This document shows, in pieces, positions 1 through 3,000 of a stretch of DNA of 34,679 nucleotides (position 1 is the first letter of the stretch; each line of letters opens with the position of its first letter). This DNA is from a virus (Duplodnaviria; Heunggongvirae; Uroviricota; Caudoviricetes), in IMG/VR virus record IMGVR_UViG_2695420676_000013, positions 1-34,679 of that record; one strand, 5' to 3'. Position numbers: made by a program.

Positions 1-3000
1 AAGAAATAGGGCTTCCACCTGGGAAGCCCTTTCTTTTTATAGTTCGGCTGTATGTAGGGTACAGCACGATGAATCTGTTAGAGGCGCAATAGTGACAGAT
101 TTGATTATCAATTCCTATTTTGTTCTAAGGATAAAACCTTAGGTTGTGATCATCCGCACAATCCCTTAGTAACGCCAGCGGTCATAACGCTGATATTTCG
201 GCATTTTTGGTGCTTTAATCGCCTTAATAACCCACACCACCGCAATCGCCAGTAGTAACCACGGCAGCAACTTAATCATCAATGCCAGCATACCGCCGAG
301 GAACATAATGGCCGTCGCCACAACCAGCGCGGCGATAATGCCCAGCAACGAAACGCCGGTGACCATCAGCATGACAAAAAAGCCAATCACAAAAAGTAGT
401 TCCAGCATGATGCTCTCCCAAATATGAAATCTCTTGCTGGCATTACAAGAATCATGCCAAAAATAATCTATTGATTTAACAGCAAAACGCCCCGCGACGG
501 TGCGCAGGGCGTGGTGAATTTGACTACTTTTTGGTGAAAAGTTAACGCTTATCCGCCACCAGTTTGAGCGCGTGTTCCAGCACGTTAATGTCAGCACCCG
601 CTTTATGGGCATTTTCACTTAAATAACGCCGCCACTGCCGCGCGCCAGGAATACCCTGGAACAAACCCAGCATATGCCGGGTAATATGGCCGAGATACGT
701 CCCCTGGCTGAGTTCACGCTCAATGTACGGATACATGGCGCGCACTACCGCCACCGGATCGGCATCGGTATCCGAGGAACCAAAGATCTCCCGGTCTACC
801 GCCGCCAGAATACCCGGATTCTGATACGCCTCGCGCCCGACCATCACGCCATCCATATGTTGCAGGTGTGCTTTGGCCTCTTCCAGCGACTTGATACCAC
901 CGTTAATCGACATTGTCAGATGCGGAAAGTCACGCTTCAGTTGATACACACGCGGATAATCGAGCGGCGGGATTTCACGGTTTTCTTTCGGGCTTAACCC
1001 CGAAAGCCAGGCTTTACGTGCGTGGATGATAAACATCTCACACTCGCCTTTGCCGGAAACAGTGTTGATGAAATCGCAGAGAAATTCATAGCTGTCCTGG
1101 TCATCGATGCCAATACGCGTTTTCACCGTCACTGGAATCGACACCACATCGCGCATCGCTTTCACACAGTCGGCAACCAGCTGCGCATTACCCATCAGAC
1201 ACGCACCAAACATGCCGTTCTGCACCCGGTCAGACGGGCAGCCGACATTCAGGTTGATCTCATCATATCCACGCGCTTCTGCCAGCTTCGCACACTGTGC
1301 CAGCGCCGCCGGATCGCTACCGCCGAGTTGCAACGCTACCGGATGTTCTTCTTCACTGTACGCCAGGTAATCACCTTTACCGTGAATAATCGCCCCTGTG
1401 GTCACCATTTCGGTATACAGCAACGTATTGCGGGAAAGCAGACGCAAGAAATAGCGGCAATGTCTGTCCGTCCAGTCGAGCATAGGAGCAATGCTAAACC
1501 GAGAACTCCAGTAATCGCCAGTTTTTTCAGGCATCACGCTGGTTTGATTAGTTTTCTGTGTTTCAGGATTATCGTGCATTTTTGAACATTTCAGGCTATT
1601 TTTCTCGCGTTAGGTTCCCGCACAGGTTCCCACGTTTTATGGGAACCCGAAATAACGAGGTCGTGTAATGGCGTACTATAACATAGAGAAACGACTAAAA
1701 TCCGATGGCACACCACGCTATCGCTGTAATGTGATTATCAAAGAAAAAGGTGTTATCACTTACAGGGAAAGCAAAACATTCCCTAAACATGCTCATGCCA
1801 AAACATGGGGCGCACAGAAAGTGATGGAATTAGATCTATATGGCATTCCATCATCAAATGCTGTTGATGGACTTACAGTCCGTGACTTACTACACAAATA
1901 TTTAAATGACCCAAATGCCGGAGGTAAAGCAGGCCGTACTAAAAGATATGTGCTGGAACTGCTTATGGATAGTGACATATCCGCGATCAAACTATCTGAA
2001 CTGACAGAAAATGACGTAATTGAACATTGCAGGCTAAGAAACAACGCTGGTGCAGGCCCAGCAACAGTCAGCCACGATGTTAGTTATCTTGGCAGTGTTC
2101 TGGATGCGGCAAAACCTGTATACGGAATCAATTACACATCAAACCCGGCGAAAAGCGCTCGTCCATATCTACTTAAACTCGGTTTGATTGGTAAATCAAA
2201 CCGTCGTAATCGTAGACCAGCATCTGATGAACTGGACATGCTCATTGAAGGCCTTCAACAACGATCTACTCATAAATGCTCAAAAATTCCGTTCGTTGAT
2301 ATCCTCAAATTTTCTGTGTGGTCCTGTATGCGAATCGGAGAAGTATGCCGGTTACGATGGGAAGATCTCGACCAAGAACAAAAATCTATACTAGTAAGAG
2401 ACAGGAAAGATCCACGTAAAAAGGAAGGTAACCATATGAAAGTTGCCTTGCTTGGGGAAGCCTGGGATATCGTCCAGCGACAACCCAAAAAATCAGAATT
2501 CATTTTTCCATATAACAGCACTTCTGTTACCGCAGGATTTCAGAGGGTAAGAAGCAAATTAGGTATTAAAGATCTGCGATACCATGATTTGCGTAGAGAA
2601 GGGGCAAGTCGCTTATTTGAGGCTGGTTTTAGTATTGAGGAAGTCGCTCAAGTTACAGGGCATCGTTCATTAAACGTGCTATGGCAGGTATATACCGAAC
2701 TGTATCCGAAATCTTTACATAATCGTTTTGAAGAGCTCCAAAGGAGCAGAAACAAGACCTCTTGACACTGTTTATTTATACAGATAAAAATAATACTGTA
2801 TACAAACACAGTATAGAGGGATTTTTATGCGTATTGAAATCTGCATAGCCAAAGAGAAAATGACTAAAATGCCAAACGGTGCTGTGGATGCGTTAAAGGA
2901 AGAATTAACTCGGCGCATCAGTAAGCGTTATGACGATGTAGAAGTGATCGTAAAAGCCACCAGCAATGATGGGCTTTCTGTTACACGCACCGCAGATAAG

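Follow-up and report, generated by a model that had tools for sequence, protein, structure and literature searches.

The dusA-integrase junction of a lambdoid prophage and candidate arm-type sites beside its integrase gene

The stretch of viral DNA analysed here, referred to as the window, comprises positions 1 to 34,679 of the IMG/VR record IMGVR_UViG_2695420676_000013 (Caudoviricetes) and holds near its left end the tRNA-modification gene dusA and, divergent from it, int, the gene of a phage integrase (Int). It is very probable (about 93%) that window positions 1476-1667 are the int-proximal attachment site, attL, of a lambdoid prophage of the mEp460/1720a-02 integration type, with an Int of the dusA-associated integrase (DAI) family, at the 5' end of the host dusA gene. 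The alignments described below place the crossover within an 8-bp core (ATGCTCGA) at dusA codons 33-35 and assign everything rightward from 1484 to the phage. On this evidence from sequence, the phage carries a 32-codon surrogate start of dusA beside its divergent int, and this start is joined to the host gene in the same reading frame, so that dusA reads across the junction and remains an intact open reading frame (ORF) of 345 codons. The integration is an instance of a system that is already known, common and experimentally characterised, to which the arm-site architecture and the fossil origin proposed below for the dusA start of K-12-type strains are modest additions.

The attL junction within dusA

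The dusA ORF occupies 542..1579 on the minus strand (345 aa, ATG at 1579; Pfam Dus, E=8e-105; NCBIfam DusA) and the integrase ORF occupies 1668..2765 on the plus strand (365 aa, ATG at 1668; PF00589, E=1e-20). The gap between the two ATGs (1580-1667) is exactly 88 bp, and the divergent arrangement described in the original prediction, which had been made from this sequence alone, is exact to the base. The window was compared with AR436, a prophage-free strain of the K-12 type, with M1/5, a prophage-free strain of the compact type, and with the attP of the free phage mEp460. Both host types are E. coli genomes without an integrase at dusA, and no alignment means that just a few bases were aligned. 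Four segments are distinguished:

542..1475, minus strand: host-derived part of dusA, from the third base of codon 35 to the stop; 99.3% identical to AR436 and 97.0% to M1/5, no alignment with the mEp460 attP
1476..1483, no strand: attL crossover core at the int-proximal junction, TCGAGCAT on the plus strand and ATGCTCGA in the dusA sense; 8 of 8 bases shared with the K-12 type
1484..1579, minus strand: phage-supplied dusA 5' end (dusA'), codons 1-32, assigned by its identity to the mEp460 attP (97.9%, 94/96); 95/96 to the attL of strain UTAK-6, 81.2% (78/96) to the K-12 type, no alignment with the compact type
1580..1667, no strand: phage-derived int-dusA' intergenic region, the P arm of attP; 100% (88/88) to the mEp460 attP, no alignment with the K-12 or the compact type

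It is seen that identity to prophage-free E. coli dusA breaks at the core, as predicted; in the compact type a short residual similarity continues past it, as far as about 1492. In the dusA sense the core reads ATG-CTC-GA, that is M33, L34 and two bases of D35, which puts codons 33-35 within the shared core and attL inside the dusA 5' coding region, where the original prediction had located it. Given that 1484-1579 is phage-like and that host identity breaks at the core, codons 1-32 are attributed to the phage. The phage origin that had been proposed for about 25 codons is thus borne out, and the count is to be raised to 32. The span that had been flagged, 1500-1700, does contain the gap and its repeats, while the recombination core lies just outside it.

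The alignment of attP, attB, attL and attR has TCGAGCAT as the sole stretch common to all four sites:

attP (mEp460): ...ACATCCTA-TCGAGCAT-AGGAGCAATGC...
attB (K-12 type): ...CCGTCCAG-TCGAGCAT-TGGTGCAACGC...
attL (window): ...CCGTCCAG-TCGAGCAT-AGGAGCAATGC...
attR (strain UTAK-6): ...ACATCCTA-TCGAGCAT-TGGTGCAACGC...

As aligned, this quartet reads as a clean reciprocal exchange around TCGAGCAT. On the phage side, the P' arm runs toward the core in the order GGTTCCCAATAGGCTCCCAC...ACATCCTA-TCGAGCAT; on the dusA 5' side beyond the core, the sequence is TGGTGCAACGC... in the K-12-type host and CGGGGCAATCG... in the compact-type host. Window 1471-1489 (TCCAGTCGAGCATAGGAGC) matches the published Citrobacter rodentium attB (TCCAGTCGAGCATGGGAGC) at 18 of 19 bases. 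Three IMG/VR contigs (L013, L079, L084) contain this int-dusA' module in its attP form. In some attL junctions of the same prophage type (IMG/VR contigs L011, L017, L030, L038 and others), TCAAGCAT replaces TCGAGCAT, with the difference at the equivalent of window 1478. This is the compact-type host variant of the core, and since the third core base is host-derived in these sites, strand exchange would take place to the right of core position 3, in the right-hand five bases.

The other end of the element was read in relatives, given that the coverage of window 1-25000 by any complete E. coli genome reaches 79% at most (72-79% for the collinear prophages). In UTAK-6, whose junction is 99.7% identical to that of the window, and in 13E0725, whose dusA-integrated prophage is overall the nearest to that of the window, the far end holds a PrtN-family gene, a few cargo genes, a 105-nt pseudogene annotated as tRNA-dihydrouridine synthase, DUF2713 and zur, and the displaced dusA 5' fragment and attR are present in both lysogens. 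These prophages total about 47-50 kb, and that of 13E0725 extends about 18 kb past the lysis genes to the PrtN/RdfN-like gene and attR. By analogy, the displaced host fragment and attR of the prophage studied here would lie at its far end, some 15-20 kb past the window. Excision would need a PrtN-like directionality factor (RdfN) encoded beside that end, as experiments on relatives indicate; in mEp460 the PrtN-family gene is annotated as an excisionase (pfam11112). The cargo between the PrtN-like gene and attR varies among relatives (L004:17145-18133, L174:15936-18310) and includes a Panacea-domain protein with a partner, which resemble a toxin-antitoxin pair, and a CoiA-like protein; defence or addiction genes may preferentially accumulate in this slot.

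The surrogate start is annotated in the free phage SKA5 as a coding sequence of 41 aa named tRNA-dihydrouridine. Its codons 1-32 include strand beta-1 (RFSIAPM), which has been argued to be the element that needs replacement (Farrugia 2015, PMC4482086). Across about 27 genera, the first ATG of dusA' stands exactly 30 codons ahead of APML with the frame open throughout, and the peptide is conserved solely at its MH(D/E/Q)N start and its RFS(I/V)APM end. The constant length of dusA' may reflect attP spacing and geometry as much as, or rather than, DusA function. The internal Met16 was considered as the true start of DusA and set aside: it is conserved only in E. coli-type elements, unlike the ATG 30 codons before APML, and for this reason the ATG at 1579 is likely to be the start.

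About one in seven complete E. coli genomes (729 of 5426) shares this int-dusA junction. Among species-representative genomes, 80 loci with a related integrase (53-99% identity) were collected, and dusA is divergent from and adjacent to it in 51 of them. The gap between int and the dusA' ATG is mostly 81-113 bp overall and 86-90 bp in most Enterobacterales. Some integrases, 53-64% identical and with repeats of the GCACCCC class described below, have no dusA in their upstream flank (mostly about 4 kb; L112, L117-L120, L122-L125, L139, L142, L147, L160). They come from Xenorhabdus, Providencia, Raoultella, Buttiauxella and Enterobacter, some genomes having two or three copies, and presumably target other sites.

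Candidate arm-type sites of the integrase

Int is identical to the mEp460 Int at 359 of 365 positions (98%) and shares 36% identity with the Int of Burkholderia phage BcepIL02 over residues 2-345; both phage integrases are named among the DAI homologues (Farrugia 2015, PMC4482086). With the divergent 88-bp gap and the prophage genes downstream, the match to a listed DAI agrees with the DAI geometry that had been recognised in the original prediction. In a 30-sequence alignment, R222, H306, R310, H332 and Y342 are invariant and R309 nearly so, and Int has the RHRH tetrad and the nucleophilic tyrosine of a tyrosine recombinase. In its AlphaFold2 (AF2) model, residues 1-58 at the N-terminus form a three-strand sheet plus helix (pLDDT about 90), and a core-binding and then a catalytic domain follow. 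We take the sheet plus helix to be the fold class of the arm-binding domains of the lambda and Tn916 integrases.

The 88-bp gap contains two direct copies of AGGTTCCC (1612-1619 and 1624-1631, spaced by 12 bp) and a perfect 8-bp inverted repeat, GGTTCCCA/TGGGAACC, at 1625-1632 and 1640-1647, with the arms 7 nt apart. The direct and inverted repeats that had been noticed between the two ATGs were thus both located, and they are of the GGTTCCC type. Three copies are probably arm-type sites for the N-terminal domain of Int:

1613..1619, plus strand: candidate arm-type site P1, GGTTCCC; found at a conserved position, with a sequence that co-varies between genera
1625..1631, plus strand: candidate arm-type site P2, GGTTCCC, 12 bp after P1; position conserved and sequence co-varying across genera
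1641..1647, minus strand: candidate arm-type site P3, inverted GGTTCCC, 20 bp before the int ATG; in relatives it varies in step with P2

Of the seven GGTTCCC copies in the window, these three are clustered within 35 bp. In mEp460, all five GGYTCCC copies found in 6.6 kb fall inside attP, a number that none of 200 shuffles reached. Of 74 related loci, spread over many genera, 49 have an exact 7-mer direct repeat with 11-12 bp spacing at most 100 nt upstream of int, where shuffles give an expectation of 0.77. The architecture upstream of int is in fact constant across genera, with two direct 7-8-bp repeats 11-12 bp apart, usually accompanied by an inverted copy; the array stops about 20 bp short of the int ATG. 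What varies is the motif: GGTTCCC in Escherichia, Kosakonia and Phytobacter, GCACCCC in Izhakiella, Mixta, Shimwellia, Xenorhabdus and Yersinia, GTACACC in Klebsiella, Pluralibacter and Plesiomonas, GGACACC in Proteus, Pectobacterium and Rosenbergiella, and GTATCCC in Oceanimonas and Zobellella, and further classes exist. In one relative (L087), the counterparts of P2 and P3 change together, to GGTCCCC/GGGGACC.

Five motif classes are found on both attP arms at corresponding positions, either in an intact attP or at both prophage ends. The motif shared by the two arms and the far-arm sequence are as follows:

mEp460: GGTTCCC; far arm GGTTCCCAATAGGCTCCCA
Yersinia phage YeP2: GCACCCC; far arm AGCACCCCAATAGCACCCC
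Shewanella phage M16-3: GGTGCCCC; far arm GGGGCCCC...GGTGCCCC
Pseudoalteromonas phage ACA2: AGTCACCC; far arm GGTGACCCTATAGTCCCCC
Salinivibrio phage SMHB1: AGTCTCCC; far arm AGTCTCCCTATGAGTACCCC

On the far (P') arm there are two sites 44-61 bp from the core, and on the int arm two or three sites about 130-165 bp from it. Repeated sites apart from the core, on both attP arms, are one trait of the substrates of heterobivalent integrases. The motif class also follows Int residues at about 21-35, with VITYRE accompanying GGTTCCC, KYIYRE accompanying GCACCCC and KHLHRE accompanying GTACACC, and this correspondence persists in elements integrated outside dusA. In the literature searched, nothing was found that links dusA integrases to arm-type sites.

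From these comparisons, the direct pair and the inverted copy of GGTTCCC would be bound by the three-strand-plus-helix domain of Int, two further copies would serve on the other attP arm, and Int, like lambda Int, would span both arm and core sites. The occupancy of the three sites would probably also affect the transcription of int, because they lie 20-55 bp upstream of its ATG, and perhaps that of dusA. The promoters of int and of the chimeric dusA are presumably located in 1580-1667. The P2/P3 palindrome was also considered as an RNA hairpin in the dusA leader, given that the changes in one relative (L085) are G-U compatible on the minus strand, and was rejected, since direct repeats of this motif are also present on the far attP arm.

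The K-12-type dusA start and the weighing of alternative readings

Prophage-free E. coli fall into two types at this locus. In the compact type, found in 1123 of 5426 complete genomes, dusA adjoins zur and has 331 codons. In the K-12 type, DUF2713/yjbM adjoins a dusA of 345 codons, the 5' segment of which is present in 4266 of the 5426 genomes (about 79%). This 5' end shares the MHxN, 30-codon signature of the phage dusA', matches the phage copy at 81-83% between the core and a point just beyond the ATG (L001:2677-2783 versus window 1476-1582) and is 87% identical to the copy of a Kosakonia element. When the K-12 type is compared with the compact type (L002), divergence starts exactly at the integrase core. 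Most prophage-free E. coli, those of the K-12 type included, hence carry a phage-like dusA 5' end, and because the K-12 type is itself about 81-83% phage-like there, identity to prophage-free strains must be used with care when a phage origin is to be refuted.

From these alignments, and if the compact type is the ancestral state, the K-12-type dusA 5' end is probably the fossil attL of an older dusA-targeting element that has lost its int and attR. Between zur and yjbM of K-12-type strains no displaced native dusA fragment was found, and similarity to the compact type stops about 90 bp from zur. A remnant of an int start upstream of the K-12-type dusA is collinear, but at 16 nt and E=3.2 it was not relied on.

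On balance, we lean towards a joint proposal in which DAIs are heterobivalent and lambda-like rather than Rci-like, attP has a fixed layout, at least five arm-motif classes have diversified together with an AP2-like N-domain, and the K-12-type dusA start is a fossil attL. The proposed layout of attP is, in order, two arm sites, about 45 bp, the core, about 130 bp with the surrogate dusA start, two direct and usually one inverted site, about 20 bp, and the int ATG. If the proposal is true, it is the zur-dusA strains, with their 331-residue DusA, that would have the native form of the protein. The literature searched contained neither the heterobivalent DAI architecture nor the K-12 fossil.

Several observations weigh against the interpretation given here. 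The attR, the displaced dusA fragment and the directionality-factor gene of this prophage are all beyond the window, and a sigma-70 consensus scan of 1400-1800 gave no site for either the chimeric dusA or int (a terminator consensus scan of the same interval gave nothing). With regard to the arm sites, GGTTCCC is not enriched window-wide (7 copies found versus 4.7 expected), a count that alone is compatible with chance, and GGYTCCCA likewise has no significant whole-window enrichment. The evidential weight therefore lies with the local cluster and the cross-genus conservation. In addition, the N-domain fold of Int is small and unrelated beta3-alpha domains match it at similar Z, and the correlation between motif and N-domain is confounded by shared ancestry.

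With these points in mind, other readings of the junction can be weighed. That dusA is wholly native, the phage having inserted upstream in the intergenic region and the likeness of the 5' end to that of other strains being allelic variation, has a probability close to nil. The similar N-terminal extension in the 345-codon dusA of about 79% of E. coli and the RefSeq annotation of the whole ORF as dusA are in its favour, but the 96 nt upstream of the core stand beside int in the free phages mEp460 (97.9%) and SKA5, identity to the host allele drops at the core, from 99.3% to 81.2%, and related lysogens have the displaced 5' fragment at the other prophage end; the comparison with attP refutes it. 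It is also quite unlikely that the element is a fixed defective remnant and the junction a historical scar on which Int no longer acts. Related prophages do carry pseudogenes (a frameshifted portal) and insertion sequence (IS) fragments, E. coli tolerates decayed elements at dusA, as the K-12-type fossil would illustrate, and the far end is beyond the window. Nonetheless, the int ORF is full length and encodes every catalytic residue, Int is 98% identical to its counterpart in a plaque-forming phage, a functional attP matches attL, the arm sites and the intergenic region at 98-100%, and long intact tail, head, terminase and lysis ORFs extend over about 9-34 kb.

For the repeats, the alternative is that GGTTCCC marks operators for a PrtN/RdfN-like excision factor, a phage repressor or a regulator of the int/dusA' promoters, and not arm sites of Int. 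Their distance of 20-55 bp from the int ATG is operator-like, the perfect 8-bp palindrome of P2 and P3 is typical of dimeric regulators, and directionality factors too bind attP arms and evolve with their element. This reading is nonetheless unlikely, given that the copies flank the core on both sides and that most are direct repeats spaced by 11-12 bp, which is a helical repeat (about 20 bp on the P' arm of M16-3), as arm-type sites are, that the motif class tracks the N-terminal sequence of Int even outside dusA, and that Int has a confident extra N-terminal beta3-alpha domain without another obvious role. Operators and arm sites are, moreover, compatible with each other.

The integration of the prophage within dusA bears on annotation. 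In lysogens of this kind the first 32 codons annotated as dusA are phage DNA, the prophage boundary in the window is to be set inside dusA at 1476-1483, and prophage finders that stop at int lose 184 bp of the element. The co-varying array of candidate arm sites offers a testable model for intasome assembly and specificity in a large integrase family, and if the K-12 dusA start is a fossil, as is likely, this matters for deciding which N-terminus of DusA is native.

Prophage body and comparison with known systems

From the junction onward, the gene order is int, dinI, tail-fibre genes and effector cargo, followed on the minus strand by tail, head, terminase and lysis genes, with the lysis genes near 33.4-33.9 kb. 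The int-dinI module is conserved, with identical arrangement in mEp460, SKA5 and UTAK-6. The remaining features of the window are:

166..408, minus strand: pspG, host gene downstream of dusA in the host flank (RefSeq annotation of the collinear loci L001 and L002, offset 1201 from the dusA coordinates)
1484..34679, no strand: prophage body, running past the window end (ORF list and Pfam matches)
2827..3075, plus strand: DinI-like gene directly downstream of int (PF06183, E=1e-19)
5675-5938, minus strand: truncated WxxxE-family effector, effector cluster
6448-7098, plus strand: NleG-family gene, effector cluster
7177-8235, plus strand: 352-aa ORF without family match, effector cluster
8365-8844, minus strand: NleG-family gene, effector cluster

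The type III effector cluster (5675-8844) lies beside the tail-fibre genes. Its 352-aa ORF may be espW, a gene annotated in matching genomes among the features under the window 1-25000 match. A 155-nt direct repeat, 90% identical (3213-3367 and 4262-4416), corresponds to the 3' ends of two tail-fibre-assembly (tfa) genes, one truncated (3191-3460) and one full length (4240-4824). A SAM-methyltransferase-like gene (3517-4185) stands between them and looks like cargo inserted at tfa by duplication or recombination.

The closest described systems are the DAI elements (Farrugia et al. 2015, NAR 43:4547, PMC4482086), from which the window does not differ in kind. They have the same divergent tyrosine integrase, the same replacement of the dusA 5' end including strand beta-1, a semiconserved att repeat in dusA and a prtN homologue within the element, the last being seen for the type of the window in relatives. 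Homology to described DAIs, divergent adjacency and an in-frame replacement 5' end with strand beta-1 are all found in the window; of the att repeat of about 21 bp, the window attL fits the published attB at 18 of 19 bases, and attR and the displaced fragment are seen in UTAK-6 and 13E0725. In that description of the family (PMC4482086), arm-type repeats and an N-terminal domain are not described, and the family is placed nearest to Rci.

Among individual phages, the Stx2d phage 1720a-02 (KF030445), integrated in dusA of Citrobacter rodentium, has an int-dusA' module 96% identical in DNA to that of the window, the same attB sequence, an int adjoining attL and late genes in a "non-canonical" orientation. 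Experiments have shown that this phage integrates about 100 bp into dusA and brings a dusA' in frame, that the core is conserved, and that the element excises as a circle with attB restored, attP being regenerated in mice (Balasubramanian et al. 2019, PMC6328086). The two differ in cargo, which is Stx2d in 1720a-02 and type III effectors in the window (the two NleG genes, the WxxxE fragment and a putative EspW-like gene), and in the core, for which 7 bases were reported in 1720a-02 (PMC6328086) versus the 8 bases common to the four att sites when a K-12-type attB is used. The phage mEp460 (NC_019716) and its relatives SKA5 and Lys8385Vzw share the Int (98%), the attP (98-100% over 1484-1667) and the int-dinI module with the window; they are free phages with an intact attP, and their tail-fibre and cargo regions are unlike those of the window.

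Among more distant systems, the dusA-specific elements of Vibrio have the same target, with int and the gene of a PrtN-like factor on opposite sides of attP, and it is for dusA-specific elements that RdfN, encoded across attP from int, was identified as the directionality factor (Durand et al. 2021, PMC8409611). Relatives of the window prophage correspondingly have a PrtN-family gene near attR, whereas the Vibrio elements are small mobilisable islands, not phages, with distant integrases. The integrases of lambda, Tn916, P22 and HP1 have no detectable N-domain sequence similarity to the window Int. Unlike in lambda-type systems, int lies across attP from the directionality-factor gene, whose place is taken from relatives, and is transcribed away from attP, and the P arm, with its putative arm-binding sites, contains coding sequence in the form of the surrogate dusA start.

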